This document shows, piece by piece, positions 1,826-20,932 of a stretch of 22,112 nt of DNA. The translations under genes and the position numbers were made by a program. Below the pieces are notes generated by a model. The model did no database searches, was not told where the DNA came from, and saw only the letters and a program-made list of their open reading frames with translations. The stretch is from Abditibacteriaceae bacterium (GTDB taxonomy: Bacteria > Armatimonadota > Abditibacteriia > Abditibacteriales > Abditibacteriaceae). The stretch spans positions 1-22,112 of the forward strand of contig JANMKN010000082.1 in assembly GCA_031372065.1 (NCBI GenBank), written 5' to 3'. Each line of letters starts with the position of its first letter. Position 1 is the stretch's first letter.

Positions 1826-2542
1826 TCACCCAAAAGGCCGTCGCGTGGGCAAGTGAAACTCGCCGCGTGGGGCGGCGTTGAGCGGGTTGGTGTAGGGCAG
1901 CATTCCGTTGGCGGCGATTTGGATTTTGCGCTTGTCGCGCTTGATTTCCTGCATCATCGCCACAGCGGTGTCGTAATCCAAACCCGCTGCGGTGCCGGTG
2001 TCGCTTTGGGTGTTTTCGTCGGCAATCCATTCGTCCAAGGCGTTTTGCAGGGCGGTGACATCGTCGGCATCCACGGAGGGCAGCGTTTCGTGGGTGAGAT
2101 TTTCCAAAATCGTGGTGGCGATTTGCTTGAGGCGCGACTCGTTGCTTTGCAATTGCTTGCCTATGAAATAACGTCGCAGATTGGGCTTGTCGCCGTCGTA
2201 TTTGAGACGCGCCCCGGTTTGCACGTCCCGAATCGCGGCAATCAGCGCGTCTTCGTCGGCTTGCTTGTCATCGGTGGCGGCGTGCGAGGTGTCGCGCCCG
2301 GTTTGGGCGTTGCCGAGCAAAGTGCGCGCTTGGGCGCTGCGCGTGGCTAACGAATCCACAAAAGCAGTCGTGATGAGGTATTTCGTGGCGAGTTTCGGCG
2401 CGTAGGCGGTTTTGCGCGCGGCGCGCACGACATCATCGGTTTCGTCCAACTCGGCTAAAAATTCCTTGTTGAACGCTTGCAATTCGCGCGGATGCGCGGT
2501 GTTGGGGGTGGCGTTATTGCCAGCCGTCTGTGGGGTCTCCAT
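1826..2542 (-). CDS. Hypothetical acidic alpha-helical protein (238 aa), downstream of 21-bp array 1
   Basis: Long ORF with an AGGAG Shine-Dalgarno before the ATG. Ala/Asp/Thr-rich amphipathic helices and a Pro/basic C-terminal tail; no catalytic motif recognised. Confidence 0.85.
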   Translation of the reverse strand: METPQTAGNNATPNTAHPRELQAFNKEFLAELDETDDVVRAARKTAYAPKLATKYLITTAFVDSLATRSAQARTLLGNAQTGRDTSHAATDDKQADEDALIAAIRDVQTGARLKYDGDKPNLRRYFIGKQLQSNESRLKQIATTILENLTHETLPSVDADDVTALQNALDEWIADENTQSDTGTAAGLDYDTAVAMMQEIKRDKRKIQIAANGMLPYTNPLNAAPRGEFHLPTRRPFG

Positions 2543-2610
2543 TGTTCGCTCCTAAAAATAAAATAGGCGTCAGAAATCGGCGTTGCCGCCGCGAAAAAGG
2601 TGTAAAAACA

Positions 2611-2639
2611 ATCATAAAATATTGCAAAGGCTGATTCAA
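2611..2639 (-). promoter_or_regulatory. Sigma70-like promoter for the 238-aa gene
   Basis: The minus strand reads TTGAAT-(17 nt: CAGCCTTTGCAATATTT)-TATGAT, about 70 nt upstream of the ATG. Confidence 0.6.
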
Positions 2640-2699
2640 GTGGCATTTTTGCTCGTTTCCATTGGATGTGTAGATGTTCTCCGAAACTCTTGGTCAAAC

Positions 2700-2867
2700 C
2701 TTCCAAAGTTATTTTGGGTGCTGCTAAAGTTATTTTTGCATCTACGAATGTTATTTTCGATGCTGCCAGAGTTATTTTCAATGCTACCAGAGTTATTTTC
2801 GCCTCTACTAAGGTTATTTTCGATGCTACCAAGGTTATTTTGGGCAAAAAAAGAGTTATTGTGGTGT
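2700..2867. repeat. Degenerate tandem array 1: 8 x 21 bp, invariant GTTATT core
   Basis: Units start at 2700, 2721, 2742, 2763, 2784, 2805, 2826 and 2847: cttccaaaGTTATTttgggtg, ctgctaaaGTTATTtttgcat, ctacgaatGTTATTttcgatg, ctgccagaGTTATTttcaatg, ctaccagaGTTATTttcgcct, ctactaagGTTATTttcgatg, ctaccaagGTTATTttgggca, aaaaaagaGTTATTgtggtgt. Confidence 0.95.
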
Positions 2868-2931
2868 GAATCCATGTCATTGAGCGGCGGCCAAGAGAAT
2901 TAGAGTGCCCGCCGAGAGAATTAGGGTTATT

Positions 2932-5334
2932 TTATCCCGGCATCAGTTGGTGGCCTTGGCGCAGTTGCCAGCCGTCAATGGCGAGCCAGAAAAGCATCAT
3001 GGCGACATCGCCCAAGGCGAGGCCGAGGAAGGCAGGAATCAGTTTGCGATACGAATCGCCGCCGCCGTAGCGCGAAACCAGAACTTTGCAAAGCCAGCCG
3101 ATGAAAATCGAAACCCAAAAAGTGTGCATCGGGTAAGCCACGCAGATCATGTAGCCGAGCGGATGCAAGGGAAACCACAAAAATTGGCTGCGGCACCACA
3201 TGACGAAAAAGGTCAGGCCGGCGCCCGATGCCAGCCACAGTAGATTGTAAGGATTCACGTCTTGCCCATTGAAGCCATTCGCCATTTGCTGCGCTTGACG
3301 TCCGGTCATTTGCGGCCCCCATTGCGAAAGCCAGCCTTGCAAGCCCAGCCCGCCGTTTTCGTAACCCAAGCGCACGTTCATATAAACGCCCAAGGTGAAG
3401 CCGACGAATATCACGGCGAAGATCAATAAACCCAGTTTGCGGCCTTCGATGCGCCGGTCACGCGCCAATTTGAAAGATTGAATAAAACTCGGCATTAAAG
3501 AGCCGCGATAATCTTGAATGCACGCCGATTCCATCACGCTGGCAACCACAACGCCATTGGCAGGCGATAAAAAGGTGCCCGGCCCGGCGCCCAGCACCGA
3601 AGCCAACGCGCCCAGCGGCATCCAGCCGTGATGCACGAAAATCAGGCCGCCTTCAGCCACAATGCGCGTGATCACGATGGCGATTGTTAAATAGCCAACC
3701 CACAGCGCCAAAGCGAGCAGGGGAGTCACGCCCGCGAAAATCGTCCACGCGACGAGAAACACAAACGAGCCGACGAAACTCCAAAACGCGGCAGGATAAC
3801 TCATCGCTTCGTGCTTTTCCATTTCGGTCATTTTCGCTTTGCCGAAGGCGCGTTTTACAATGTGCCCGAAATGTTCGCGGCCAATCCAGAAAATAATCGC
3901 GACATAAGCCAAATGTGCGCCCGTATCCTGAAAACCCACAAAGGCTTTGTTGCCGGTTTCCAACTGGTTCGGCAACGAGTTGGGTGGGAAGCCAAGGTAA
4001 TAAGCGGCCACCATTTGAAATTTGATGAACCAGTAGAAAAACCACAGAGAGAACGAAATTTCCGAAGTCAGCAAATAGGCGATGCCCGTGGCAATCGGCC
4101 AAACTTTAATCACTGTCCAGCCCAATTGATTCCACGGCGGCTCGCTGAAAAGTTGCCCGGTGTTAATGTCGAGCGGCACACGCGGCACATCGGGAAAATA
4201 AATGTTCAAACCGTTCAACAGTTGAATCAAAACCGCGATGCCAAAGCCGACCCACATGAGCGGATTTAAAAAGAAGGTGCCCATCGGCGACTTCGGATTG
4301 TCCATGCCTTCGGTCAGTTCCATCGGCAAGCGCATGAGTGGAAACGCCAGTGCTTCGCGTTCGCCCCACTGACCGCGCAGCATCACACTGAGGCTGCCGA
4401 GCAGGATAAAACTCGCCATGAACAGGCTGCCCCACGCCAAAAGTGGCACCAGCCACGCGCCCCACGGAATATGCCCGCCATTGCCGCCATACCAGCCTTC
4501 GACCACGGTTTTATCGTAGGTGCCGGTCATGTAGGTCGCCGGACTCATCCACGAAGGCATATCTTTAAGCGCGTCCATCCATTTATTTTCCGGCGAGGCG
4601 AAATAAAAGCAGCCGATGATAAAACTAACCCAATAATTGTTGCCACCGATGCCGACAATCAGCGCCGAGAACAAACAAGTAATGTAGACCGTGAGAACTT
4701 CATTGCGCGACAGCGGGCGACGCAGCAAAAAGCCGACGAATAAAAACGCCGCCGCCGCGACCAAAATCCAGCCAATTAATACAAAAAGCGAGGCCCACAA
4801 CGGCGGCGCGATCAGAAAATGCGTGATAAAGGCGGCGAAAAGACAAAACGGCACCGCGAGAAGATAAGATTTGCGCTTTGAAAAGTAAAAAGCGGCCAAC
4901 GAAGCAATCGCGCCGCCAAGCCAAGCTATCGAAATCAATCCGTAAAAGGGCGCCAAGCGCACACTAATTATTTCGTTAAATTGCCGCAACCCGTAAGCCA
5001 ATACCGCGCAACCAATGGCGCCGCCGAGTAGCATCACCGGCTTGCCATTATGCCCCGTCACATAATTGAGAATTGGGTTGACGACCAGCAGAAAAATCAG
5101 CAGCGTGCCGAGCGCGCCCGGCGGCAAGTGTGTGGCACCCAAAAAGGTGTTGAAAAATTTATAATCAACAACCGGAATAATCCACGCGAACAGCACTGCC
5201 AAAAACAAACTGAGCGCGACTACGCGCGGCGTCACGCCGGGGCCAAAATCATTTTCGGCTTGATATGCAGCTTCGCGCAGCGATTCCGACGATATTTCAG
5301 CGTGTTCCGTCGCGGTGGCAGTGGTCTGGGGCAT
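2932..5334 (-). CDS. Large polytopic membrane protein, DUF6785/DUF6784-like (putative transporter)
   Basis: 800-aa ORF with many hydrophobic segments. Motifs recalled from this family: QWGEREALAFPLMRLP, RIVAEGG, WFPLHPLGY, SIFIGWLCK...RYGG...YRKLIPAFLGLALGD. Confidence 0.8.
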   Translation of the reverse strand: MPQTTATATEHAEISSESLREAAYQAENDFGPGVTPRVVALSLFLAVLFAWIIPVVDYKFFNTFLGATHLPPGALGTLLIFLLVVNPILNYVTGHNGKPVMLLGGAIGCAVLAYGLRQFNEIISVRLAPFYGLISIAWLGGAIASLAAFYFSKRKSYLLAVPFCLFAAFITHFLIAPPLWASLFVLIGWILVAAAAFLFVGFLLRRPLSRNEVLTVYITCLFSALIVGIGGNNYWVSFIIGCFYFASPENKWMDALKDMPSWMSPATYMTGTYDKTVVEGWYGGNGGHIPWGAWLVPLLAWGSLFMASFILLGSLSVMLRGQWGEREALAFPLMRLPMELTEGMDNPKSPMGTFFLNPLMWVGFGIAVLIQLLNGLNIYFPDVPRVPLDINTGQLFSEPPWNQLGWTVIKVWPIATGIAYLLTSEISFSLWFFYWFIKFQMVAAYYLGFPPNSLPNQLETGNKAFVGFQDTGAHLAYVAIIFWIGREHFGHIVKRAFGKAKMTEMEKHEAMSYPAAFWSFVGSFVFLVAWTIFAGVTPLLALALWVGYLTIAIVITRIVAEGGLIFVHHGWMPLGALASVLGAGPGTFLSPANGVVVASVMESACIQDYRGSLMPSFIQSFKLARDRRIEGRKLGLLIFAVIFVGFTLGVYMNVRLGYENGGLGLQGWLSQWGPQMTGRQAQQMANGFNGQDVNPYNLLWLASGAGLTFFVMWCRSQFLWFPLHPLGYMICVAYPMHTFWVSIFIGWLCKVLVSRYGGGDSYRKLIPAFLGLALGDVAMMLFWLAIDGWQLRQGHQLMPG

Positions 5335-5376
5335 TGCCAGATATTTTAACTAAAGTGGAGCAGAATGTTCTCTTGT

Positions 5377-7974
5377 TTACGGCCCAATTCCACTCAGCGG
5401 ATAATTGCTGGCGGTTTGCCACGCGATGCGTTGAAAAATCGCCGCTTGTTCGGGCGTCAAGCCGCTGTCGAGCGCGCTGACTTTGCCTTCGGGACTTTCC
5501 TTGAACAAGCACGAATAAAAGACCAGAGCCACCATATAATTGCCGCGATATTGCAAATGCAATCCATCGGCGGAAATGTCTTTCCAAAAGTCGGTCAGGC
5601 CCGGCACGCGTCCGGCGTCTATTTCGGTTTTGAGCGCCGCCAAAGCGGGGCCAGCGGGCACGATCAGAACGGGTTTGCCGGTGTAGGTTTGATTGACTTT
5701 TTCGCGCACCGCTTCAATGAATTTCAGGTTGTTGTCTACGCCTTCTTGCCACGTTGTCGGCTTCGGCAAATTTAGCGGCAAAGCCGAGCCTAAACCTTGC
5801 GTGCGCTTTTCGGCCATTGATTTATCGGGCCACTGCGCATAAAGCCACGCTTGAATATCGGGGCTGTTTTGCCGCGCGAGATTATAGAATTTGATGGAGT
5901 ATTCGGCTTCGTTTTCGATAGGCTTATCGCGCCCGGCAAAGGGCTGCGTGAAGATGTGATCTATCGGCGCGAAAACTTGCAGGGCTTGGGAATAATTGGT
6001 GTCGCCAAAACCGCTGCCGGGATGCGCCCACAGATAATCAATGGCCGCGCCGGAAAAAGTGAAACGGTGATAATCGAATGATTTCCCGGCACTTTGCGCT
6101 ATCGGTTGCAGCCAGCGATCCATGCCGAAAGTCAGGCTGTTGCCGATATGAAACGTGCGCAAGCCAACAAAGTTATCGGGCAATTTGTAACCACCCGCGA
6201 CGGCGGCGCTGGCCGCTAAATCATCGGTGTAGGCAATGGCCGAAAACACGGTGCTTTTGTCCACCGAAATCGGTGCCGTGACGACTTCGCCTATATCGCG
6301 CGTCGGGTCGCCACCTGTGTTGCGAAATATCGTCTCGCCGCCGCGTGTGATGCGAAATTTCGCGTCCGGTGTGGGCGAGGAAAGCGTAACAGTCAGCGGT
6401 TCAGCATAAGTGCCCGGTGGCGGCGAAAAGACTGGCGGTTGGGCTTGTTTATCGGCGCCCAAATCAAGCGCCACCCATTGATCTGTGACGCTCGCGCCCT
6501 CGAAATAGGTGTCGGCATCGCCGTCGAAAACTTTGTCGAAGGTGCTGATTGAACCGGGCGCGGCATCGCTGCCAAGCGGCGTGCCGGAGATGCGCACGTT
6601 GTCCCACAAAAATTCCAGTTCGGCGAGGCCACCAAACGAATTAGTGGGCGCTTCAAATTTCAAAAACCGATAAAGCGCCGCTTTGGGCAGCACAATTTCG
6701 TTCCACTGACCTTCGAGCGGCATCGTAGTGATCGAAGTGATAAATTGCAGTTGCGAATTTGGCCCGGCGTTGGAGCCATAAAACTGGCCGCGAAACAAGC
6801 GTGCGGCATAACCGGGGCGAGGAAAAAAGCGAATCTTGGTTAGCGGCGGGCAAATAATTTTATTGCCGTTGAGCAGCGTGGCTAAACCTCGCGCGCGTCC
6901 AATACTGGCATTGGTGGTCTCTGAAAGCAAGACGTAAAAAATTTCGTTGCCTTCGTCTATGGCATCGGCATTTACAGGCACATCGAAAGTGCGATGAGTT
7001 TCACCCGCCGCGAAAGTCAGCGTGCCATTTTGCGTTTCGTAATCAAGAGGCGCGAGGGCCGTGCCATCAGCCGTTTTCCAGTTCACCGAAACCGCCCTGT
7101 CGCTTGGTGCGGAAAGACTCACCGTAAAATGCGCTTTGTCATCAGCTTCGTTGACGATAACATCGCCCGCCGATAAAGCTGGCGCACGGTCATCGTTGAG
7201 AATCGTGCCAGTAGCGCTTTTTATGGGGAGTGTGGCACCGATTGGCAGGCTCAAATTGAGCGTAAATGTTTCGTCCGGCTCATCGCGCAAATCGCCATTT
7301 ACTAAAACGCGCGCCAGAGCCACGTCATAGCCTGTGTTGAAAGCAACAGGCGTTGCGACAAGAGGAACATAATCATCGTTGGCTTTTGCGGTAGCAGGCC
7401 CAATGTCATTCTGTGTCGTGCAATTAACTCGCACCGTTCTGCCGCTGGGTGCCGACAAATGCAAGCGAAATACTGCGAATCTTTGCCCACTATTGCCTTC
7501 GGGGACAATGGCGTTTTCGATGGAAATTGAAGGGGCCGGATCATCATCTTGAATCGTGCCAATGGCGCGTCCACGTCCAAGACTGACATTGACTGGCGAC
7601 GACAGCAAAACGTAAAACACTTCGTTGTCTTCGTCTATTACATCGCTGATCAGGGGCACCGAAATAATCTGGCTGGTTTCGCCCGGCTTGAACTCCAATT
7701 GCCCAGCAGAAGCCTCGTAATCATACGGCGCCTTCGCCGCACCGTTGGCCGTTTTCCAATTGACCGTCACAGTCGTGGCGGCAGCTTTCGAGAGCGTCAC
7801 CACAAACAAAGCGTTGGTGGTGCTATTACTGCCTTCGATAACCGTCGTATCTTCAATGGTTACAGCAGCCAACGAATCAGCTATAGCAACAGGCGAATGC
7901 CAAATACTGGCTGAGGCGAATACCGCCAGCGCTACAATATGCCTTTTGAGAAAGCGAGAAAAGGGAGATTTCAT
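5377..7974 (-). CDS. Secreted multidomain protein: 3x Calx-beta, discoidin/CBM-like region, chitobiase-C/Fn3-associated domain, C-terminal SGNH-like hydrolase
   Basis: Likely start is ATG 7974 (MKSPFSRFLKRHIVALAVFASASIWHSPVAIA signal peptide). Calx-beta motifs (VNWKTANG...DY...LEFKPGETSQ; GTIQDDD), FDGDADTYF...WVALDLG, PPVFSPPPGTY, and an SGNH-like block I HIGNSLT with a C-terminal DGLH. Confidence 0.82.
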   Translation of the reverse strand: MKSPFSRFLKRHIVALAVFASASIWHSPVAIADSLAAVTIEDTTVIEGSNSTTNALFVVTLSKAAATTVTVNWKTANGAAKAPYDYEASAGQLEFKPGETSQIISVPLISDVIDEDNEVFYVLLSSPVNVSLGRGRAIGTIQDDDPAPSISIENAIVPEGNSGQRFAVFRLHLSAPSGRTVRVNCTTQNDIGPATAKANDDYVPLVATPVAFNTGYDVALARVLVNGDLRDEPDETFTLNLSLPIGATLPIKSATGTILNDDRAPALSAGDVIVNEADDKAHFTVSLSAPSDRAVSVNWKTADGTALAPLDYETQNGTLTFAAGETHRTFDVPVNADAIDEGNEIFYVLLSETTNASIGRARGLATLLNGNKIICPPLTKIRFFPRPGYAARLFRGQFYGSNAGPNSQLQFITSITTMPLEGQWNEIVLPKAALYRFLKFEAPTNSFGGLAELEFLWDNVRISGTPLGSDAAPGSISTFDKVFDGDADTYFEGASVTDQWVALDLGADKQAQPPVFSPPPGTYAEPLTVTLSSPTPDAKFRITRGGETIFRNTGGDPTRDIGEVVTAPISVDKSTVFSAIAYTDDLAASAAVAGGYKLPDNFVGLRTFHIGNSLTFGMDRWLQPIAQSAGKSFDYHRFTFSGAAIDYLWAHPGSGFGDTNYSQALQVFAPIDHIFTQPFAGRDKPIENEAEYSIKFYNLARQNSPDIQAWLYAQWPDKSMAEKRTQGLGSALPLNLPKPTTWQEGVDNNLKFIEAVREKVNQTYTGKPVLIVPAGPALAALKTEIDAGRVPGLTDFWKDISADGLHLQYRGNYMVALVFYSCLFKESPEGKVSALDSGLTPEQAAIFQRIAWQTASNYPLSGIGP

Positions 7975-8074
7975 GTGAGAATGTCTTATCGTTCGACAGT
8001 AGATTAAAGGATACAAAGTGTCGCAACACGGGCGCAGGTTTTAGCAGCATTTTGCTGTAACACTATGCCTCGTT

Positions 8075-9553
8075 ATGAAACATTTTTTTCTCCTTTTGAT
8101 GGCTGCCTCTTTTCTTTCGCTACCGCACGCTTTTGCCAAAGATTCTGCCCAAGAAAAGCCCAATGTTTTGTTCATTGCGGTGGATGACCTCAACGATTGG
8201 ATTGGCTGCCTGAAAACGCATCCGCAGGCGCACACGCCCAACATTGATGCGCTGGCGTCTCGTGGAACTTTATTCACCAACGCACATTGCCAAGCGCCGC
8301 TTTGTAATCCGTCGCGAGCAAGTCTTTTAACGGGATTGCGCCCTTCGACAACAGGCATTTACGGCCTCGCGCCCGGTATTCGCGCGGTAGAAGCCACGAA
8401 AAACCGCGTGACTCTGCCGCAATACTTCGCAAAGCACGGATATTTCACGGCGGGTTTTGGCAAAATCTTTCACGACGGCTCGATTGCTAAAAATGAACAA
8501 GATAAAGAATTCGATGTATGGGGCATCGCGCCGCCGATTCCACTGCCCGATAAGAAATTAGTGAACACGCCTTCCGATTTGCGCGCGATGGATTGGGGCA
8601 TTTTCCCCGCAGATGATCGCGAGCAAGCTGATTGGAAAATTGCTGATGCGGCGATTAACCAACTGAAAAACGCGCCGCAAGGCAAGCCTTTTTTCATTGC
8701 TGCTGGCTTTCGATTGCCTCATGTGCCGTGTTTCGCTTCGCAAAAATGGTTTGATTTAATCGGCCCTGAAGAGAAAATTATCTTGCCCAACGTGCTGCGC
8801 AATGACCGCGCCGATTTACCATTTTTCGCGTGGTATTTGCACTGGAAACTGCCCGAACCACGCCTGTCGTGGCTCGAAAAAGCCAACCAATGGCGCAATC
8901 TCACGCGCGCTTATTTGGCAAGCACGGCCTTTATGGATAGTCAAGTCGGGCGTTTATTGGAAGCACTTGAAAAAAGCGGAAAACGTGAAAACACGATCAT
9001 TGTTTTATGGTCAGATCACGGATGGCACCTTGGCGAAAAAGGCATCACCGGCAAAAATTCGTTATGGAATCGCTCCACTCATGTGCCCCTGATTTTCGCC
9101 GGGCCGCGCGTGACAAAAAACGCACGTTGCAATCAACCAGCGGAATTGCTTGATTTGTATCCAACGTTAGTGGATTTATGTGATTTACCCCCACAAAGCG
9201 GCCTCGAAGGTCACAGTTTGTCGCCACAATTGCAAAATTCAGCAGCGCCGCGCCGTTTTCCGGCGATTACTACACACAATGTGGGCAACGATAGTGTGCG
9301 CTCAGAACGTTGGCGCTACATTCGTTATGCCAATGGCTCGCAAGAATTATATGATGAGCAAAACGACCCCAACGAATGGCGTAATTTAGCGAGTGAGTCG
9401 CGTTATGCCAAAGTAATTCACAATCTTGCGCGGTGGTTGCCAAAATCCGCTGCGCTACCCGCGCCGGGCAGTGCCCAACGCGTTTTGTGGCAAGAAAACG
9501 GCGCGTGGATTTGGGAAGGCAAAGCCATTAATCCGGCGGAATTGGAAGATTAG
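8075..9553 (+). CDS. Exported formylglycine-dependent (S1) sulfatase, iduronate-2-/choline-sulfatase-like
   Basis: Signal peptide; KPNVLFIAVDDLND; CxPxR signature CNPSRASLLTG; GKIFH; SDHGWHLGEK. Confidence 0.95.
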   Translation: MKHFFLLLMAASFLSLPHAFAKDSAQEKPNVLFIAVDDLNDWIGCLKTHPQAHTPNIDALASRGTLFTNAHCQAPLCNPSRASLLTGLRPSTTGIYGLAPGIRAVEATKNRVTLPQYFAKHGYFTAGFGKIFHDGSIAKNEQDKEFDVWGIAPPIPLPDKKLVNTPSDLRAMDWGIFPADDREQADWKIADAAINQLKNAPQGKPFFIAAGFRLPHVPCFASQKWFDLIGPEEKIILPNVLRNDRADLPFFAWYLHWKLPEPRLSWLEKANQWRNLTRAYLASTAFMDSQVGRLLEALEKSGKRENTIIVLWSDHGWHLGEKGITGKNSLWNRSTHVPLIFAGPRVTKNARCNQPAELLDLYPTLVDLCDLPPQSGLEGHSLSPQLQNSAAPRRFPAITTHNVGNDSVRSERWRYIRYANGSQELYDEQNDPNEWRNLASESRYAKVIHNLARWLPKSAALPAPGSAQRVLWQENGAWIWEGKAINPAELED

Positions 9554-12180: not shown

Positions 12181-12450
12181 ATGGCAAACGGTGAAGCGTT
12201 AGGGATGATTGAGACCAAAGGTTTGGTCGGTGCCGTAGAAGCTGCCGACGCAATGGTGAAGGCGGCCAATGTGGAATTGATTGGCAAGCAAAGCATCGGC
12301 GGTGGACTGGTGACTGTGATGGTCGCTGGCGATGTTGGCGCTGTGAAAGCCGCCACGGATGCGGGTGCGGCTGCCGCGCAACGTGTGGGCGAATTGGTCA
12401 GCGTTCATGTGATTCCGCGTCCGCATAGCGACTTGGAAAAAGTGTTTTGA
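12181..12450 (+). CDS. BMC-H shell hexamer protein (EutM/PduA-like)
   Basis: [31 protein letters not shown]...[13 protein letters not shown]...HVIPRPH; AGGAG SD before ATG 12181. Confidence 0.97.
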
Positions 12451-12542
12451 TTTTAGGGATTAGGTCTTTGGCCTTGCACGTTATGCGTTTGATTTTTGGA
12501 ATTGTCTTCGAATTTCAAACTCCAAAGACCCAAATCCTAAAA
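12451..12542. repeat. Intergenic inverted repeat built from ~7-bp units
   Basis: TTTTAGGGATTAGGTCTTTGG (12451-12471) pairs with CCAAAGACCCAAATCCTAAAA (12522-12542), with 3 mismatches. Confidence 0.75.
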
Positions 12543-12562
12543 CCTAAGACCAGTTCGTCAAA

Positions 12563-13342
12563 ATGAAAATTTCGCACGAAGATTTAGTGCGTTTGATTGC
12601 CGGTGAAGTCGGGGCGCTGCTGCAAAGTCGTATAAACGCCGCGCCCAATGGCAAATCGAACGGGACGCCGCCGGGCTTGCCTACGACGCCTTTTGGCGCC
12701 GAGGCCAGCGACAAATATCCGTCGCCCGAAACGATTGCGCAGAACGGGTTTCCGTGCAATGTTTCGGCGCGGCATGGACATTTGACACCGGAACACGTCG
12801 AAATTTTATTTGGTCGCGGCGCGAAATTGACGCCTTTCAAATGGCTGTATCAGGAAGGGCAGTTCGCCTCGGAGCAACGCGTGCATATCGTCGGGCCGCG
12901 CGGCTCCATTACCAACGTGCGCATTTTGGGGCCGGAGCGCAGCAAAAGCCAGTTTGAAATTTCGCGCACCGATGCCTTGACCATTGGCGTGATGCCGCCG
13001 ATTTTGCAGTCGGTCAATCATGGCATCGGGTCGCCGATTACTGTGGTTGGCCCACAAGGTAGTCTGCATTTGGACGATGCTTTGATTCGCGCCAAGCGCC
13101 ATGTGCATTTGCATCCTGACGAAGCGCAGCTATTGGGCGTGCGAGATGGCGATGAAATCGGTGTCGAATTGCCCGGTAGCGATCAAGGCTTGCTGCTGTA
13201 TAACACGCTGATTCGCGTTGATAAAAGTTTTCACGCCGAGATGCACATTGACACCGACGAAGGCAACGCAGCGGGCATCGAACCGGGTGCCAAAGGTTTC
13301 GTGCTGTCGCCGCGCTCAGGCATTTGCCAGATTTGTAAGTAG
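12563..13342 (+). CDS. pduL: PduL-type phosphate acyltransferase (phosphotransacylase) with N-terminal encapsulation peptide
   Basis: NVSARHGHL, VRILGPER...QFEISRTDA, RHVHLH and EMHIDTDEGNA motifs; N-terminal helix ISHEDLVRLIAGEVGALLQSR followed by a Pro/Gly linker. Confidence 0.93.
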   Translation: MKISHEDLVRLIAGEVGALLQSRINAAPNGKSNGTPPGLPTTPFGAEASDKYPSPETIAQNGFPCNVSARHGHLTPEHVEILFGRGAKLTPFKWLYQEGQFASEQRVHIVGPRGSITNVRILGPERSKSQFEISRTDALTIGVMPPILQSVNHGIGSPITVVGPQGSLHLDDALIRAKRHVHLHPDEAQLLGVRDGDEIGVELPGSDQGLLLYNTLIRVDKSFHAEMHIDTDEGNAAGIEPGAKGFVLSPRSGICQICK

Positions 13343-13440
13343 GTTTTGGGACTTAGGTTTTGGGTTTTTGAACGGCGGAGTTGGTTCGTCAAAGCCCCAA
13401 AACCAAAACCCAAAGACCAAAAACCTAAGTCCCAAAACCT
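13341..13440. repeat. Intergenic inverted repeat, perfect 21-bp arms built from ~7-bp units
   Basis: AGGTTTTGGGACTTAGGTTTT (13341-13361) is the exact reverse complement of AAAACCTAAGTCCCAAAACCT (13420-13440); further CCAAAAC-like units lie inside. Confidence 0.9.
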
Positions 13441-13443
13441 GAA

Positions 13444-14633: not shown

Positions 14634-14644
14634 GATAAAACATC

Positions 14645-14905
14645 ATGGATTTTGGAAAAGTCATTGGTCGGGTGGTTTGCACCATTAAAGACCCGAAATT
14701 GGAAAACCTGCCGCTACTCATCATCGAAGGCTGCGGGCATGACGGCAAGTCGGCGAACACGCGCTTTATTGCGGCGGATGCGATTGGCGTCGGCGAAGGC
14801 GAATTCGTTTGGTATGAAACGTCTGGCGAAGCGCCATTGGCGTGGGAAAGACGCCCGCCTGTGGATGCCTCAATTGTCGGTATTGTGGACAAAGTAAACA
14901 GTTAG
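14645..14905 (+). CDS. BMC-P vertex pentamer (EutN/CcmL family)
   Basis: MDFGKVIGRVVCTIKDPKL...AADAIGVGEGE...PVDASIVGIVD. Confidence 0.93.
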   Translation: MDFGKVIGRVVCTIKDPKLENLPLLIIEGCGHDGKSANTRFIAADAIGVGEGEFVWYETSGEAPLAWERRPPVDASIVGIVDKVNS

Positions 14906-14947
14906 CTTTATAGCAGTTAGATTTCAAAGCTAATCCCTAAAAGCTAA
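14902..14947. repeat. Short intergenic inverted repeat of TTAG/CTAA ~7-bp units
   Basis: TTAGCTTT (14902-14909) / AAAGCTAA (14940-14947), with inner TTAG/CTAA. Confidence 0.55.
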
Positions 14948-14955
14948 AGGCTCCA

Positions 14956-15261
14956 ATGAAACTCGCGCGTGTGATTGGCAACGTCGAAGGTGTGATTAAG
15001 CATCCGACTTACGTCAGCTTGAAAATGCTGGTGGTGCAGCCGTTGGATGAATTTCTTGGCGAAAAAGGCCGCACGCATCCGGCGATTGATACGGTTGGTG
15101 CAGGCATCGGCGATTTGGTTTTGGTGGTTGAAGAAGGCAAGGCCGCGCGCGAAAGAGTCGGGAAGAAAAACGTGCCGATTCGCACCTTAGTGATTGGAAT
15201 TGTGGATTCGGTAGATGTGCTGGCACGCGAAGAAACGGGCCACCAGAAAAATCTGGCATAA
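14956..15261 (+). CDS. BMC-P vertex pentamer (EutN/CcmL family)
   Basis: MKLARVIGNV...K...MLVVQP...AIDTVGAGIGDLVLV...EG..AR...PI...VIGIVD. Confidence 0.94.
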   Translation: MKLARVIGNVEGVIKHPTYVSLKMLVVQPLDEFLGEKGRTHPAIDTVGAGIGDLVLVVEEGKAARERVGKKNVPIRTLVIGIVDSVDVLAREETGHQKNLA

Positions 15262-15266
15262 ACGAC

Positions 15267-15995
15267 ATGAGTGAATTTGAACTGAACGCCACGCAACTGC
15301 AAAACCTGATTCGAGACACCGTTCAGGCTGTTTTGCAGGAACGCGCCGCGCGTCAAGCGCCAACGCCTATCGTGTCGGCGCCGCAACCGAAAGCCAAGCA
15401 GATTCTGGTGGCGGTTTGTTGCAATGAATGTTTGCGGCCCGAAGCGACAGCGGCGCTTAATGAATTGAGAAGCGCCGGTTTCATCCTAATCGAGCCGGGG
15501 CCTCATGAATTCAAAGAGCGCGCCACGCGCGAGCGATTAGTCTCCAAAAGTGACCTCGTTCTCTTACCTTCAATGGGCGATGACGACGCGGCGAAAATGG
15601 CGCTGGGCATTTTCGATGAGCCAACCGCACGAGTCGCGCTTTCGGCTTTGGCCGTGGGCAAACCACTTTTAGCATCGCCGCATTCGCCTTACGATGGCGC
15701 TTTGAAATCGCGCAGTCCGGTGCTTTTCAATTTGTGGCAAGGCTATCGCAAAACACTGGAAAATTTCGGCTTTGAAATTGTTGAAGCCGATGCAATGGCA
15801 AGCGCCGCACAAGCGCATTTGGCGCCGAAAAATGAAATCAAAATGGTCAGCGCACCATCTGGCAAGCGGCGTGTGATTACGGCGCAAGAAATCGAAGCGG
15901 CAGCGCTAAATGGCAAGCGTTTCGATGTGCCGCCCGGCGCGCTCATAACGCCTTTGGCGCGTGACAGAGCGCGCGAACTTGGTGTGAAATTGTGA
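15267..15995 (+). CDS. BMC-associated accessory protein: N-terminal encapsulation-like helix, flavoprotein/PduM-like Rossmann-type core, C-terminal ITPLARD domain
   Basis: N-terminal LNATQLQNLIRDTVQAVLQER plus Pro linker; core DLVLLP...AKMALGIFD...ALAVGKPL; C-terminal VITAQEI...VPPGALITPLARDRARELGV, a motif I recall from BMC-locus accessory proteins. Confidence 0.7.
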   Translation: MSEFELNATQLQNLIRDTVQAVLQERAARQAPTPIVSAPQPKAKQILVAVCCNECLRPEATAALNELRSAGFILIEPGPHEFKERATRERLVSKSDLVLLPSMGDDDAAKMALGIFDEPTARVALSALAVGKPLLASPHSPYDGALKSRSPVLFNLWQGYRKTLENFGFEIVEADAMASAAQAHLAPKNEIKMVSAPSGKRRVITAQEIEAAALNGKRFDVPPGALITPLARDRARELGVKL

Positions 15996-16005
15996 AGTTT
16001 TAATA

Positions 16006-16034
16006 GGAACGCGGAGGCACAGCCTCGGCGTTCC
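16006..16034. repeat. GC-rich intergenic hairpin (REP-like)
   Basis: GGAACGC-G-GAGGC-ACA-GCCTC-G-GCGTTCC, just upstream of the aldehyde dehydrogenase SD. Confidence 0.6.
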
Positions 16035-16056
16035 GTTTAAAAAGCATGAGGTAAAA

Positions 16057-17535
16057 ATGAAAATCAGCGAACAGCAAATTGAAGAAATCGTGCGCGGCGT
16101 GATGCAAAATATCGGTTCTGGTGGGGCGTTTGCCTCCAATGGCAAAGGCGCGGGACGCATTGACGATCCACAAAATCATCCGGCGGGCGAACACCAGCAT
16201 TCGGCTTCGGAACTGCGCGGTTTGCATGGCATTTTTAACACGGTTGAAGAAGCCGTCGAGGCGGCCCGTGTGGCACAGCGCACTTGGATTAAGATGCCGA
16301 TTGCGCAGCGCAAAATTTGCGTTGAGGCGATGCGCGCGGCGGGTCGCGCTAATGCCCGCCCACTGGCCGAAATGGCCGTGGAAGAAACGGGTCTGGGCCG
16401 CGTCGAAGACAAAGTGGTGAAAAATCAGCTTTGCTCCGATCTTACGCCGGGTTGGGAAGTTTTGCCGACGCAAATGTTTCAAGGCGATTTAGGTTTGACC
16501 ATTGACGATCATTTTCCGTATGGCGTGGTTTGCGGCATTACGCCGGTCACGAATCCCACTTCAGGCTTGATTAACAACGCGATTATTTTCGCCATTGCGG
16601 GCAACGCGGCGGTGTTTTGTCTGCATCCTTCGGCCAAAAAATGCACCATGACGACGATGGCGAGTCTCAACGATGCCGTCGCCAAAGCCGGTGGCCCGCG
16701 CAATTTGTTTACTGGCGTGGCTAATCCGACGCTCGAAACGGTGGATGCCATTATGCGCCATTCCGTTGTGCGATTAATCAACGCGACGGGCGGACCGGGC
16801 GTGGTTAAAGCGGCGCTCGGCGTCGGCAAAAAAGCGGTCTGCGCCGGGCCGGGCAATCCGCCTTCGATTGTGGACGAAACTGCCGACTTGGAAAACGCCG
16901 CGCGCAGCATCGTTAATGGCGCAAGTTTCGATAACAATTTGCTTTGCATCGGCGAAAAAGCAATTGTCGTAGTGGATTCCGTGGCTGATGCGTTTTTGGG
17001 GGCTTTACAGCGCGCTGGTGCCTACTTTGCGCGCGGCGACGAGGCGCAAAAGCTGGCAAATTATGTGGTCGAAGGCGATCATATCAGCCGCGAACCGATT
17101 GGCTGGGACGCCGCGCGCATTTTGCGAAAATGCGGAATCAACGCGCCCGAAAGCAGCAAAATCGGCGTGCTGGAATTGCCCGCCGATCACACGTTGGTTT
17201 TGCAAGAACAATTGATGCCGATTGTGCCTTTGGTGCGCGCGCGCGACTTCAAAGAAGCGCTGACCATTGCCCTGCGCATCGAAGGCGGGCGCGGCCACAC
17301 ACTTTCGATTCACTCGCTGGATGTTTCGCGCATCACGGCGGTGCGCAACGCTTATCAATGCACAGTTTTCGTGGCGAACGGCTCCACCGCAGCGGCTGAA
17401 GGCGTCGGCGGCGAAGGTTTCGTGGCGATGAGTTTGGCCGGTCATACGGGCGAAGGTTTCACCACAGCGGCAACGTTCGTCAAACGCCGCCGCGCCGCTT
17501 TTGTCGGCTCATTCAGCAGCGGCGCGCCGCTGTAA
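16057..17535 (+). CDS. CoA-acylating aldehyde dehydrogenase (EutE/PduP type) with N-terminal encapsulation peptide
   Basis: EETGLGRVEDKVVKN, TPVTNPT, ATGGPGVV, GPGNPP, SFDNNLLCIGEK (catalytic Cys), EQLMP and GEGFT motifs; N-terminal helix ISEQQIEEIVRGVMQNIG. Confidence 0.95.
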   Translation: MKISEQQIEEIVRGVMQNIGSGGAFASNGKGAGRIDDPQNHPAGEHQHSASELRGLHGIFNTVEEAVEAARVAQRTWIKMPIAQRKICVEAMRAAGRANARPLAEMAVEETGLGRVEDKVVKNQLCSDLTPGWEVLPTQMFQGDLGLTIDDHFPYGVVCGITPVTNPTSGLINNAIIFAIAGNAAVFCLHPSAKKCTMTTMASLNDAVAKAGGPRNLFTGVANPTLETVDAIMRHSVVRLINATGGPGVVKAALGVGKKAVCAGPGNPPSIVDETADLENAARSIVNGASFDNNLLCIGEKAIVVVDSVADAFLGALQRAGAYFARGDEAQKLANYVVEGDHISREPIGWDAARILRKCGINAPESSKIGVLELPADHTLVLQEQLMPIVPLVRARDFKEALTIALRIEGGRGHTLSIHSLDVSRITAVRNAYQCTVFVANGSTAAAEGVGGEGFVAMSLAGHTGEGFTTAATFVKRRRAAFVGSFSSGAPL

Positions 17536-17542
17536 AGTTGCC

Positions 17543-18352
17543 ATGAAACTTTCCCTTTTGAAATTTCGGCGTTTTGCTTTGCTTGTGGTTCTGACTGTCG
17601 CATCGCTGATGGGATGTAAGCGCGACCCTTTGGCAGATGTGCCAGAGCGCTTGCAGCTTTTCGTTCCGGCGGGGGCCATGCCAGCTGATATAAAGTTAAT
17701 TGTGGCTATGATGGAGGGAAAGGTTAGCGATTTTGAGGCGGCTTTGAGTGAAGGGGGAAATATCAGAATCGCAATGTCTAATGGCGAAACGCCCCTTCAA
17801 TATATTGTTAAATCCCGAAATCAACAATTGCTGAATGCGATTTTTTCCAGAATGCCTATCGGCGAAGTGAGAAGGACCTTTGTAGAATCGGCCAATAAAG
17901 GCGAAGACCGGGTTTTAGAGGCGTTAATTCCTCAACTTAAAAGCACTGGCTCCGATGTTTTTCAAGACGCCTTGATGAGTATGGCCGATTCTGGTGAAAT
18001 TCGAACGATAAAAGTGGAGGCTACTTACAAGAACGATGATGGGCGACGCTTAACAAAAGAAGCGACACGAGCTTTGGATATACTCCTGAAAAACGGGGCG
18101 CAAATCAATAAAGCATCCATTTATGGAGAAACCCCCTTGATGGCCGCCGCAAAAACTAATCGCGCCGAAATGGCATACGAATTATTGCTGCGCGGTGCTA
18201 ATTGGAAAGCCAAAAATAAAGCTGGTAAAACCGCTTTGGATGTGGCGCGTGCCAGTCGTGCGGGCGATAGGCTTTATGGGAGCATCATTCCTTTGTTAGA
18301 GCAATGGCAGGCTGGAAAAATATCTGCGCCTCGCTCAACGAAGGCAAAGTAA
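17543..18352 (+). CDS. Ankyrin-repeat lipoprotein
   Basis: ATG 17543 gives MKLSLLKFRRFALLVVLTVASLMG|C (lipobox). Ankyrin motifs GETPLQY, LLKNGAQIN...GETPLMAAA, LLRGANW...GKTALDVA. Confidence 0.85.
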   Translation: MKLSLLKFRRFALLVVLTVASLMGCKRDPLADVPERLQLFVPAGAMPADIKLIVAMMEGKVSDFEAALSEGGNIRIAMSNGETPLQYIVKSRNQQLLNAIFSRMPIGEVRRTFVESANKGEDRVLEALIPQLKSTGSDVFQDALMSMADSGEIRTIKVEATYKNDDGRRLTKEATRALDILLKNGAQINKASIYGETPLMAAAKTNRAEMAYELLLRGANWKAKNKAGKTALDVARASRAGDRLYGSIIPLLEQWQAGKISAPRSTKAK

Positions 18353-18387
18353 TTGGGGTCAATTTAAAATCTCACGCATCATAAACC

Positions 18388-18423
18388 AAAGCGGGGCCGA
18401 CAGCATTGTGGGCCTCGCTTTTT
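18388..18423 (+). terminator. Intrinsic terminator after the BMC-ankyrin gene run
   Basis: AAAGCGGGGCC...GGCCTCGCTTT stem followed by a T run. Confidence 0.65.
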
Positions 18424-18464
18424 GACTTACAGTAGGTGGGCAGAACAACAAGAATTGTTGGAAT

Positions 18465-18521
18465 GTAGGGGCGCACAGCGTGCGCCCGCAGAATTAGAGG
18501 ACGCACGCTGTGCGCCCCTAC
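18465..18521. repeat. GTAG-family REP doublet (REPIN-like)
   Basis: GTAG-GGGCGCAC-AGC-GTGCGCCC, a short spacer, then the inverted copy GGACGCACGCTGTGCGCCC-CTAC. Confidence 0.88.
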
Positions 18522-18607
18522 TGCCGTCATTTTGTCAGGAATAATTCATCGCCTTAACCAAAGATTGATAAAATGCCTCGTGTTTGGTCGTCCACAGGCC
18601 TTTTCGC

Positions 18608-19933
18608 ATGAACGAATCTTCTTCGCTTGCTCCACCCGCGCCAGTAGAAACGCCCACGTTGCGCACTTATCTGAGCATCAGTTTGTTCGGGCTGGCGCTC
18701 ACGTTTTTTTGGGGCGCCATGTTGGTGCAGGTCATGCCGCAGGCCGTTTTGCAAATCGCTGGCGATGCGCATAAAGATCATGTGCTGGCAATCGTGCAGA
18801 GTTCGGGCGCGTTTGTTTCGGCGATCACGCAAATTGTAGCGGGCGCGTTTTCCGATAACACCACATTGCGCATGGGGCGGCGCAAGCCATATTTGATTTG
18901 TGGTGTGTTGCTGACCACCGTTGTGCTGCTGTTTTTGCCCGGTGCGCGCACCATTGGCTCGCTGATGGCGGCTTATTGGGGCATTCAATTGTTTTTGAAT
19001 GTCTCGCATGGCCCCTATCAGGCGCTGATGCCCGATTTGATTCCGACAGATCATCATGGGCGCGCTTCCTCTTATATGGGTGTGGCGGCTCTGCTCGGAC
19101 GCATCGGTGGGCCGATGATTGGCGCATGGCTGCTGAGTCGGCCCGATGGGTTGCAATTGCTCACTTGGGTTTTCATCGGCGTGCTGAATAGCATGATGGT
19201 TATCAATGTGTGGTTGCTGCGGGAACAGCCTATTGCACATGGCGAAGGCATCAGTAAAACGCTGAAAAGTTTGTCGAAAGTCACATTGCGGCCTTATCCG
19301 GATTTTTTATGGCTGCTGATAAGCCGCTTCGGCATCATGCTGGGCGTTTATACCATTTTGCCGTTTCTTCAATATTATGTGCGCGATACTTTGCACATCC
19401 CGGAAGCCGAAGTGATGCACACCGTCATGAGGTTTTTATTGGCTGCTACCGGTTCTGGTTTTATAGGCGTCATTGTGGCGGGCATCGCCAGTGATCGTTA
19501 TTCCAAAAAGCTGATTTTGTATATCGCCAACGCGGTTTCGATGGTAGCTGCCGCCGGGTTTGGTTTGGCGCAAAACACTGAACAAGCGTTTTGGGCGGCT
19601 ATGGTTTATGGCGTGGGAGCGGGCACCTTTGCCGCTGTAGATTGGGCACTGGCCGCTGGACTTTTGCCGCCCGGTGCGCCCGCGAAATATCTGGGCATCT
19701 GGAGCCTTTCGGATACGATGCCGCAAGTGGTGGCTCCACTCATTGCCGGGCCATTTGCCGCCTATTTCAATGCGCAAATGCAAGGCATCGGCTACCGTTG
19801 GATAATGCTGCCCGCCGTTATTTATTTTGCGCTTGGCACTTATGCGATTACTTTTGTGCGCGAGCCGAAACACACGCTGCTCGAAGAGTTTTCGCACGCA
19901 GAAGAGGCCGATAATGACGCGCCGCAACTATAA
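18608..19933 (+). CDS. MFS transporter (GPH/sugar-type)
   Basis: About 12 hydrophobic segments; GAFSDNTTLRMGRRKPY, PYQALMPDL and GIASDRYSKK motifs. Likely start is ATG 18608. Confidence 0.93.
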   Translation: MNESSSLAPPAPVETPTLRTYLSISLFGLALTFFWGAMLVQVMPQAVLQIAGDAHKDHVLAIVQSSGAFVSAITQIVAGAFSDNTTLRMGRRKPYLICGVLLTTVVLLFLPGARTIGSLMAAYWGIQLFLNVSHGPYQALMPDLIPTDHHGRASSYMGVAALLGRIGGPMIGAWLLSRPDGLQLLTWVFIGVLNSMMVINVWLLREQPIAHGEGISKTLKSLSKVTLRPYPDFLWLLISRFGIMLGVYTILPFLQYYVRDTLHIPEAEVMHTVMRFLLAATGSGFIGVIVAGIASDRYSKKLILYIANAVSMVAAAGFGLAQNTEQAFWAAMVYGVGAGTFAAVDWALAAGLLPPGAPAKYLGIWSLSDTMPQVVAPLIAGPFAAYFNAQMQGIGYRWIMLPAVIYFALGTYAITFVREPKHTLLEEFSHAEEADNDAPQL

Positions 19934-19947
19934 TTTGAAGGCTTCGC

Positions 19948-20178
19948 ACGATTGATTCAACTATTGGAACGATTGACTGAACCTATGAAACGATTTACTA
20001 AACCCTACGCACGATTGACTGAACCTATGAAACGATTAATTCAACCATTGGAACGATTCTTTGAACTAATGAAACGATTTATCGAACCCTACGCACGATT
20101 GGTTGAACCAATCGTGCGATTTATCGAACCATTGAAACGATTGATAAAACCCTTCGCAGAAATGGCTGAACATTTCGT
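19948..20178. repeat. Degenerate tandem array 2: 10 x 21 bp plus one decayed unit, core (A)CGATT-N5-AAC
   Basis: Units start at 19948, 19969, 19990, 20011, 20032, 20053, 20074, 20095, 20116, 20137 and (decayed) 20158. Examples: ACGATTgattcAACtattgga, ACGATTgactgAACctatgaa (units 2 and 4 identical), ACGATTtactaAACcctacgc, ACGATTtatcgAACcctacgc. Confidence 0.95.
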
Positions 20179-20278
20179 ATAATTATCTCAACCCTTAACA
20201 TTAACAGTTGCAGTCAGCGCGCGAATGGCTGCGACCTAAATATGTAATTCTCATTTTTTCGCGCCAAAGGATATTCTC

Positions 20279-20932
20279 ATGGATAAAGTAGCACGACACC
20301 AGCAAGCACGCGGTGAACGCGTGCGCGATTTCGCCGATACGCACACGGCCTTGTTCGCTTCGGGCGACGCTGCCGAAGACATCGCCATTGTGCGCGCCGA
20401 AATCACCAACCTCTCGAACAGCGGTGGCTCGCAAAGCGGCAGTGGGCAAGCAGCCAAAGGCGACACCGCGCGCATCGCGGAAATCGTTCACGAAACAGAA
20501 GCCGAATTGCGCGACATTGCTCGCACAGGGCGGCGCCTCAAAAAGCGCGACCCGAATATGACCGCGCATTTCGAGTTGCCCGCCAACGACGCTGACGACA
20601 CCATCATGAACACCGCACGCGGTTTCATCACCAACGCCACTCCCTTGAAAGCCAAGTTCATCGCGCGCGGCATGGCCGATGATTTTCTCGACGATTTGGG
20701 CGATTTAGTCGAAGAATACGACGACTTGGTGGCCGCGCAAACCGGTCATGAGGAGGATCGCGGCGACGATACTGCCGCCATCACCGCCTCCGTGAAAAAC
20801 TTGGTAGATGCCATTGATGACCTTGATGACATTATGAAAAACAAGCTGAAAATGTTGCCTGCCGAACTCGGCGAATGGAAACGCGCCAGCGCACGCGGCA
20901 AAATCCCACGCAACCCGAAGAAAACCCCGTAG
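20279..20932 (+). CDS. Hypothetical acidic alpha-helical protein (217 aa), downstream of 21-bp array 2
   Basis: AAGGA SD; Ala/Asp-rich amphipathic helices; Pro/basic tail (GKIPRNPKKTP). The stop codon lies in the GTAG of the first REP. Confidence 0.88.
   Translation: MDKVARHQQARGERVRDFADTHTALFASGDAAEDIAIVRAEITNLSNSGGSQSGSGQAAKGDTARIAEIVHETEAELRDIARTGRRLKKRDPNMTAHFELPANDADDTIMNTARGFITNATPLKAKFIARGMADDFLDDLGDLVEEYDDLVAAQTGHEEDRGDDTAAITASVKNLVDAIDDLDDIMKNKLKMLPAELGEWKRASARGKIPRNPKKTP

Follow-up and report, generated by a model that had tools for sequence, protein, structure and literature searches.

Organization of the Two Loci

The window, the whole stretch of 22,112 nucleotides analysed here, carries two genes for long-helix proteins (P1 and P2), each preceded by an array of 21-bp units. 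The features at the two loci are listed below.

1770..1807, no strand assigned: terminator-like 17-bp perfect hairpin, just beyond the P1 stop codon
1826..2542, minus strand: P1 gene, an ORF of 238 aa for a two-module long-helix protein of family A
2611..2639, minus strand: consensus-only match to a sigma70-like promoter, TTGAAT-17-TATGAT, in the gap from array 1 to P1
2700..2867, minus strand: array 1, eight 21-bp units with the invariant gene-strand core A(A/C)AATAAC, units not palindromic
2813..2891, minus strand: array 1 leader and first units, 78 of 79 nt the same as in a gene-less copy (G000:C213, ~4230-4308)
2883..2926, no strand assigned: two extra 21-bp units of another motif (family D16), not in the register of array 1
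19948..20178, plus strand: array 2, ten 21-bp units and one decayed unit, with invariant ACGATT and a second block AAC
20178..20183, plus strand: hexamer TATAAT where array 2 ends, a possible -10 read from the sequence; no -35 passed the scan
20207..20235, plus strand: hairpin with a 10-bp stem in the presumed P2 leader, found by eye, not by folding
20279..20932, plus strand: P2 gene, an ORF of 217 aa for a two-module long-helix protein of family B

The cores of array 1, GTTATTTT, lie at 2708, 2729 ... 2855 (n = 8) with a spacing of 21 throughout, giving a TRF score of 143, and the array ends 158 bp from the P1 ATG (2542). In array 2, ten [AG]CGATT cores from 19948 to 20137 are exactly 21 apart and are followed by one decayed unit that extends to 20178, 101 bp from the P2 ATG (20279). 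These values agree with an earlier note on this DNA, which had described two exact arrays of 8 and 10+1 units upstream of a 238-aa gene on the minus strand and a 217-aa gene on the plus strand. The dyad score of array 1 (0.38-0.43) is not significant, and one unit pair of array 2 (20093-20117) forms a near-perfect palindrome. The D16 units start right behind the stop codon of a DUF6785 gene. Near P1, the sigma70-like scan gave two matches versus 0.9 expected by shuffle, which is a weak signal, and no terminator between array and gene is listed at either locus.

Proteins P1 and P2

No family was matched at cut-off by P1 in Pfam, NCBIfam, PADLOC or PHROG, or by the P2 family in Pfam or NCBIfam. 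Family A has eight loci in the own genome (G000), and P2 has 999 relatives at the 50%-cluster level. The AlphaFold models (pLDDT 85.6 for P1 and 97.2 for P2) are all helix and contain no strands, with helices at 18-42, 59-114, 135-148, 159-214 and 220-228 in P1 and at 3-21, 29-90, 106-129, 136-189 and 194-204 in P2. Each model is built from two repeats that pair a shorter helix with one of 54-62 residues, and a weak internal repeat was detected within P2. No recognised DNA-binding motif was found in either model; no catalytic motif was seen in the P2 family (family B), which has no conserved catalytic-type columns.

BLASTP between P1 and P2 gave only E values of 0.04 and 0.10, the latter for the IRDV/LRDI register already aligned in the earlier note, and profile-profile comparison aligned P1 48-133 with P2 125-210 (probability 84.5, E 7e-6, 86 columns). 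The homology is real yet remote, in line with the distant relationship proposed earlier. Acidity, which had also been taken as a family trait, did not hold: P2 has a net charge of -9, but the family median is +1 and the proteins are overall neutral to acidic.

Foldseek returned nothing for P2 against PDB or BFVD at E <= 0.001. The best VIA Z values, 10.2 for P1 (rmsd 4.0, 187 aligned) and 10.1 for P2 (rmsd 3.6, 141 aligned), lie within the generic helical-bundle range and point to no specific relative. HBM-type and trypanosome receptor bundles are near the top of the fold lists for both models; such common matches would fit the same layout and give no function. DUF6261/HagB-like proteins, named in the earlier note for a fold comparison, are similar in size and all-helical. 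PF19775 matched none of 123 family-B members at E <= 0.01. The nearest Pfam-bearing Atlas cluster (0.86, 146 shared features) has DUF6261 on 32% of its members, which is a lead only, and an upstream repeat at HagB was not confirmed in the literature listing.

21-bp Arrays across the Genome

A genome-wide lag scan detected 281 arrays at lags 20-22, as against 14, 7 and 9 at the control lags 16-18, 25-27 and 31-33, and the 21-bp arrays are therefore not due to chance. Most are intergenic (264/281) and have a pure 21 period (250/281); f20 is above f21 in 29. About 100 motif families were distinguished among 205 strict arrays, whose conservation power at 10.5 bp is 1.55 versus 0.71 +/- 0.04. Derivation of the 21-mers from heptamers was ruled out, as lags 7 and 14 show no excess. 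Flank matches occur between pairs or small groups of arrays; neither a terminal sequence common to all arrays nor a target duplication was seen in the flanks.

A recognised partner gene lies beside 53 of the 264 intergenic arrays. Gene-less arrays that have a motif family in common with a gene-linked one (39-54 of 163) are not more frequent than under permutation, and motif families common to several gene-linked arrays number 2 versus 4.6-5.8 expected (p 0.01-0.09). Array 1 has one gene-less twin in the own genome, and three gene-less arrays with the motif of array 2 occur elsewhere in it.

Association of Arrays with Long-Helix Genes

In the own genome, with P1 and P2 as the only family seeds, an upstream array was found at 6/6 family A loci with room for one and at 6/7 family B loci; the background is 199 of 4465 genes (4.5%). 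Relatives of P2 in other genomes, mostly Acidobacteriota, have an upstream array at 16 of 18 loci and a downstream array at none (searched up to 2 kb); kin loci are not independent of one another. Further full-length paralogues have an array within 750 bp in five of six cases. The conserved array-before-gene module inferred in the earlier note, in which the period stays constant while the motif changes along with the gene, is supported. The proposed tie of the arrays to the gene family stood in one direction: homologues are enriched in upstream arrays, but a recognised partner gene is missing beside 211 of the 264 intergenic arrays.

The arrangement varies among families. The array is downstream of family F4 in three genomes and upstream of the remaining families, and arrays of period 20 and 41 precede some family members. 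No array was found at any of 10 family-B loci of genus g4, at 2/6 evaluable family-A loci in other genomes or at 14/29 one-module loci. Genome G059 has a large palindromic array family (79 pattern hits), with a helical gene at none of 20 loci examined and no partner gene found; its motif is absent from four other genomes. Plasmid searches gave no match for P0033 or the F2 query and one weak match, lacking an array, for the F4 query; P0033 had no phage match either. The window loci are members of a genome-wide cassette family that is accompanied by many gene-less arrays, and do not form a tidy two-part system.

Evidence for relocation came from the sister genome G162. The gene-less twin of array 1 at C213 is flanked by a gene whose G162 orthologue (84%) adjoins the P1 orthologue, and the latter has its own, diverged array. 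As G162 keeps the whole cassette at the site of the gene-less twin, this synteny establishes that array 1 has relocated. The window site is empty in G003, and all five sites in G162 that are orthologous to those of gene-less arrays lack an array. An MFS relative in G003 was discarded as an empty-site comparison, being only 55% identical. Among contigs of one study, no empty-site joint was found at either cassette.

Unit Symmetry and Protein Architecture

Significant dyad symmetry was observed at 20/22 one-module versus 5/22 two-module loci in the own genome and at 7/11 versus 2/21 in other genomes, the one-module families having been classed without folding. Over all loci, units are palindromic at 27/33 one-module and 7/43 two-module loci, the latter being mostly asymmetric, in a comparison that was conceived post hoc from the consensus lines of three families. 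Conservation and GC are similar between the two groups of arrays. Family means of dyad symmetry separate completely (7 vs 8 families, p 1.6e-4), with family F14, at first labelled "one?", reassigned to the two-module class after its sequence and score were known. Some one-module families are weakly homologous to P1/P2 (E 3e-4, 1e-3), and for others no homology was detected. This match of symmetry and architecture is the strongest clue to recognition of arrays by the proteins. The asymmetric unit could be read by a pseudo-dimer in P1, P2 and other two-module proteins, and the palindromic unit of one-module proteins by a homodimer.

Possible Function of the Cassettes

The reading that we favor, and consider fairly probable, is that array and gene form a cassette in which the 21-bp array, in double-stranded form, is bound by the long-helix protein encoded beside it, and that such site-plus-protein units wander among changing intergenic positions. 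Absence of a codon or strand signal, the 10.5-bp rhythm and the occasional 20- and 41-bp periods all point to double-stranded DNA rather than to peptide or RNA, with one predicted site per two helical turns. A phased binding array, one of the options offered in the earlier note, is now the preferred one. Because array 1 lies upstream of a promoter-like site, binding would likely control expression of the protein's own gene. Cassettes and bare arrays turn up at new intergenic sites, as synteny shows for array 1, gene-less arrays would be cassette relics or secondary copies, and the net effect might be dispersed, lineage-specific phased protein-binding sites, either selfish or nucleoid-organising.

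A different view, which we regard as unlikely, takes the arrays for satellites, either autonomous or spread by the host, or for mobile-element ends moved by another enzyme, and the helical genes for non-recognising cargo. It would account for the 80% of arrays that are gene-less, for the lack of a cognate gene in the assembly for ~70% of these, for the G059 expansion with no partner seen, for the genes that persist without arrays and for the distribution of arrays over tandem, divergent and convergent gaps, which follows the background. However, unit symmetry that follows protein architecture, an array side that is specific to the family (as in F4) and a pairing of roughly one gene per motif family would all be surprising for cargo, and flanks with no common terminal sequence also argue against it. 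Less probable still is transcription of the arrays into repeat RNAs, with hairpins in the palindromic families, that the protein would bind in the manner of type III toxin-antitoxin systems or attenuation. Folding of array 2 does exceed that of shuffled sequences (z -4.3), z falls below -2 versus column-permuted arrays in 34% of 70 sampled arrays, all four copies of the array 2 family share the sense strand with a neighbouring gene, and the start of many arrays is no more than tens of bases away from a stop codon (median 54). Against this, array 1 shows no fold (z +0.8) and is separated from P1 by the promoter-like site, arrays overall have no consistent orientation to transcription (14 same, 16 opposite), periods of 21 and 10.5 bp fit B-DNA and not A-form RNA, and no Rfam match was obtained.

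That the arrays encode heptad-repeat peptides partnering the helical proteins, another option of the earlier note, has largely been refuted already and seems very improbable. Open frames occur at both window arrays (76 aa and 141 aa), the pure 21 period prevails, and open frames slightly exceed expectation genome-wide (2.18 vs 1.77-1.84). On the other hand, 24/55 gene-linked arrays are closed in sense, where frames are open less often than in antisense, and 27/205 arrays lack any open frame. No codon-phase signal was obtained (contrast 0.49 vs null 0.55, whereas 14 arrays inside long ORFs gave 0.67 vs 0.49), synonymous positions (CGA, ATA) are among the invariant bases, and arrays with period 20 or 41, or with f20 above f21, do not suit a heptad.

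Comparison with Known Repeat Systems

Bacterial tandem repeats with a constant period of 20-21 nt (also 40-41), variable sequence and a short conserved motif have been described in many bacterial groups, as several species-specific and mostly non-coding families per genome with no function known; the two helical turns were remarked upon, and a protein polymerising on the repeats was proposed speculatively to explain the fixed period (Subirana & Messeguer, PMC8161180). A partner gene, a cassette, mobility and a symmetry rule, all absent from the accessible part of that report, are added here. Another report concerns a different, heptamer repeat, and its accessible part names no helix-bundle partner (MacGregor 2015, PMC4679880). 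The arrays described here agree with the 20-21-nt satellites in constant period, variable sequence and short conserved motif, and likewise in being multi-family, species-specific and mostly non-coding. They belong to an already known class; the open literature searched yielded neither the cassette nor the symmetry rule and names no partner protein.

In iteron-Rep origins and centromere-binding pairs such as parC-ParR, direct repeats phased at about two turns precede the gene for the cognate binder, with likely autoregulation. Our loci resemble them in this phasing and in the position of the partner gene. However, the units here are highly degenerate, the loci are chromosomal and many per genome, the all-helix models of P1 and P2 lack a winged helix, ribbon-helix-helix or HTH, and no partition NTPase or origin lies beside the window loci. 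In REP-RAYT systems, the gene for a Y1/HUH transposase is patchily distributed beside a family of GTAG-tagged hairpins, whose gene-less copies are scattered intergenically, often after stops. Cognate repeats beside a gene plus gene-less copies (one for array 1, three for array 2) recall this pattern, whereas P1 and P2 have no Y1/HUH domain and their units, unlike GTAG-tagged hairpins, repeat as strict tandem 21-mers. The window itself includes one REP-RAYT gene (21093-21608), a separate gene and the only one with a PF01797 match.

Type III toxin-antitoxin loci also place a repeat array before a small gene, with near-identical pseudoknotted repeats, a promoter before the array and a terminator between array and gene. 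The units here are shorter and far more degenerate, a promoter-like site follows array 1, and matches to ToxN/CptN/TenpN (Pfam, NCBIfam, PADLOC) or to an Rfam antitoxin were not obtained, which leaves the likeness to this layout suggested earlier confined to the order of array and gene.

Implications

These results name candidate proteins for the 20-21-nt satellites, and the cognate pairs are testable with short oligonucleotides; one-module proteins are predicted to bind palindromic sites and two-module proteins asymmetric ones. It is possible, with less confidence than we give to binding at the window loci, that the long-helix superfamily represents new, re-programmable sequence-specific DNA readers with a 21-bp footprint, which would form dozens of orthogonal pairs within one genome, assemble into phased filaments and drive satellite spread. 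If binding is true, the proteins would offer a DNA-recognition scaffold with no known motif, a single genome would supply about 50 protein-site pairs that have diverged naturally and could serve as orthogonal parts, and the cassettes would be a repeat-spreading system seemingly without a nuclease of its own.

Two Arrays and the 21-bp Period

The earlier note read the window as carrying, twice, an array of 21-bp units before a gene for an acidic helical protein. Both arrays and both open reading frames (ORFs) lie where it placed them:

1826–2542, minus strand: P1 gene (238 aa, family A)
2700–2867: array 1, upstream of P1
9645–17535: presumed bacterial microcompartment locus, named from translations (DeoR regulator, class II aldolase, two shell hexamers, PduL-like, three EutN-like, aldehyde dehydrogenase)
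12446–12551 and 13341–13440: related period-7 degenerate repeats, inverted to each other, the genome's second class of dispersed repeat
18465–18521: second GTAG-tagged 23-bp inverted repeat, of other sequence
19948–20178: array 2, upstream of P2
20279–20932, plus strand: P2 gene (217 aa, family B), its stop codon inside the first GTAG-tagged repeat of the next element
20929–21743: REP-RAYT-like unit, with a Y1 transposase gene (21093–21608, PF01797) between GTAG-tagged palindromic repeats (genome-wide, the repeat pattern occurs 21 times and there are 2 Y1 transposase genes)

Array 1, of 8 cores, ends 158 bp before the P1 start codon; array 2, with 10 cores and one decayed unit, ends 101 bp before that of P2. 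Spacing is exactly 21 bp in both. An indel-tolerant scan of the window's genome (G000, in which the window is contig C106) recovered 281 arrays at lags 20–22, versus 14, 7, and 9 for three control lag sets; a 21-bp-type period is special in this genome. Period 20 exceeded period 21 in 29 of the 281, and the strict arrays (n = 205) formed about 100 motif families. Inverted halves or paired head-to-head arrays, which could form long hairpins, occur on contigs C14, C27, C68, C265, C369, C382, and C409, and short 21-bp arrays flanked by a further dispersed repeat (apparent period near 47 bp) at C3:5325, C172:2925, and C336:3419.

The Array-Adjacent Proteins

P1 and P2 had no match at cut-off in Pfam, NCBIfam, PADLOC, or PHROGs, and aligned P2 relatives (n = 123) gave no consistent family match either. 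P2 relatives number 999 at the 50%-cluster level; P1 relatives are few. In models of both proteins, a shorter helix and then one of 54–62 residues make up a unit that occurs twice (hence "two-module"), with strands absent; the P2 halves align weakly to each other. The proposed distant homology of P1 and P2 holds at the level of helix layout and of a profile match between the P1 first half and the P2 second half (probability 84.5, E = 7e-6), whereas direct similarity is marginal. Conserved polar columns of the P2 family, mainly Arg, Lys, Thr, Asn, and Trp, do not suggest a catalytic set, and mean family charge is neutral. Clustering of array neighbors yielded more orphan families (137–330 aa), some with a C-terminal fibronectin-III-like domain. 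Broken helical-family members that retain arrays were seen at C351:49953–50665 and C233:480–1119, and in genome G165 (loci L167/L172).

Linkage of Arrays and Genes

Seeding from P1 and P2 alone, we found an upstream array at 6/6 family-A loci with room and at 6/7 family-B loci (five by the detector, one at lag 41), with two further loci of each family at contig ends; the background was 199 of 4,465 genes. For the orphan families found by neighbor clustering, 52 of 63 loci have an array alongside, a count that is circular. Homologs elsewhere bear out the linkage: among 18 loci of P2 relatives in named genomes, mostly Acidobacteriota and, judging by gene content, probably of another phylum than the window, 16 have a 20–22 array upstream and 0 downstream, the two array-free loci being a complete gene and a C-terminal fragment. 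Further full-length paralogs have an array within 750 bp in five of six cases, the sixth at about −1000. Array motifs diverge with their genes, as the earlier note proposed: close gene pairs share a motif (cosine 0.83, 0.77) and distant pairs do not. In family F4 (150–165 aa), the array lies downstream of the gene (C234, C239, C43, C382, C69, and loci L190 and L230 in two other genomes).

Array-free loci are evidence against the linkage: family B in genus g4 (arrays at 0/10 loci: L002–L005, L007–L009, L013, L014, L018), 2/6 evaluable family-A loci, and 14/29 one-module loci. Several g4 genes have a common divergent neighbor, which we take to be fabH-like, suggesting a domesticated, array-free branch of family B.

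Nature of the Arrays

The arrays had been read as possible DNA-binding arrays, repeat RNAs, or heptad-repeat peptides. For a peptide, open frames are slightly in excess overall (2.18 vs. 1.77–1.84), but the arrays lack codon-phase signal (0.49 vs. null 0.55), which 14 arrays within long ORFs do give (0.67 vs. 0.49), and in 24 of the 55 arrays linked to a gene every sense frame is interrupted. As RNA, array 2 folds (z = −4.3) but array 1 does not (z = +0.8), the arrays have no Rfam family match, and related arrays take either orientation relative to transcription (14 vs. 16). Conservation is strongest at the 10.5-bp harmonic (1.55 vs. 0.71 ± 0.04), and a promoter-like site with a weak consensus match lies between array 1 and P1. 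Taken together with the period-20 arrays, these results lead us to favor a double-stranded DNA element.

Symmetry of the Units

Dyad symmetry is significant in 82 of 205 arrays. At matched conservation and GC, units are palindromic beside one-module proteins (20/22 in G000, 7/11 in other genomes) far more than beside two-module proteins (5/22 and 2/21); architecture was assigned from length, self-alignment (clear in F0 and F6, weak in family B, absent in A3, A4, and F14), and two models. Averaged by family, the two classes separate completely (7 vs. 8 families, P = 1.6e-4), the idea being post hoc and F14 having changed class after inspection; families that did not prompt it agree (4 vs. 8, P = 0.002). 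Homology of the one-module families, whose architecture was assigned from length and self-alignment, to P1/P2 is weak or undetected. Arrays 1 and 2 show no significant dyad symmetry, as predicted beside two-module proteins. Sequence-specific DNA binders ordinarily read a palindrome as a homodimer and an asymmetric site as a pseudo-dimer, so this match is the strongest indirect sign that the proteins recognize their arrays directly.

Movement and Scatter

The start of array 1 is repeated (78/79 nt) on contig C213, with inner units reshuffled and the gene absent. In genome G162, a P1 orthologue (57% identical) with its own diverged array adjoins the orthologue of the gene flanking this copy on C213, and in G003 neither array nor P1 follows the DUF6785 orthologue (79%). 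Thus, the P1 cassette has relocated and an array persists at the other site, probably the earlier of the two. Orthologous sites of gene-less arrays were array-free in sampled G162 DNA (5/5), and plasmids and phages gave no match for the query P0033. At the counterpart of the P1-cassette site, G003 carries another insert (L049, 3327–3595), an inverted-repeat element between two 26-bp direct repeats, and G162 has another hairpin element at the site orthologous to C363; such intergenic gaps may be insertion hot spots.

The array-before-gene module is real and conserved, but the system is larger and messier than first read: a recognized partner adjoins only 53 of 264 intergenic arrays in G000. The remainder sit between ordinary genes, and their split among tandem, divergent, and convergent gaps matches the background. 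Motif families common to gene-linked arrays were rarer than expected (2 vs. 4.6–5.8, P = 0.01–0.09), and gene-less arrays falling in a gene-linked array's motif family (39–54/163) showed no excess over permutation. Some partners may be missing because the assembly is in 410 pieces and 94% complete. Array density per 200 kb sampled was 9 in G000, 15 in G059, 0 in G162, and 1 each in G033 and G084. In G059, one palindromic 21-bp family has expanded genome-wide (79 pattern hits, e.g., L128–L157; 0 in four relatives), with no partner gene in the 20 loci examined.

Relation to Known Systems

Iteron-Rep and centromere-binder pairs have an array-before-gene layout, and REP-RAYT systems have dispersed repeat copies. 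The layout and dispersal are alike here, but the defining proteins of the former are absent, as is that of REP-RAYT from the P1/P2 cassettes; DUF6261 is no more than a lead. The arrays are members of the 20–21-nt constant-length satellites of Subirana and Messeguer (PMC8161180), who ascribe two helical turns to the repeats and, in the part of the paper available, speculate on a polymerizing protein and name none. The repeats are thus already known and the array-gene system is new; no description of the cassette appeared among the literature listings searched, a novelty that Subirana and Messeguer's 2020 paper and supplements could alter. The period, the linkage, the scatter, the DNA-type non-coding signature, the symmetry correlation, and the move of one cassette are established here. 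We consider direct phased binding of each array by its putative partner, the long-helix protein, somewhat the likelier reading. The cassette gene would then probably be autoregulated, with a possible role in spread.
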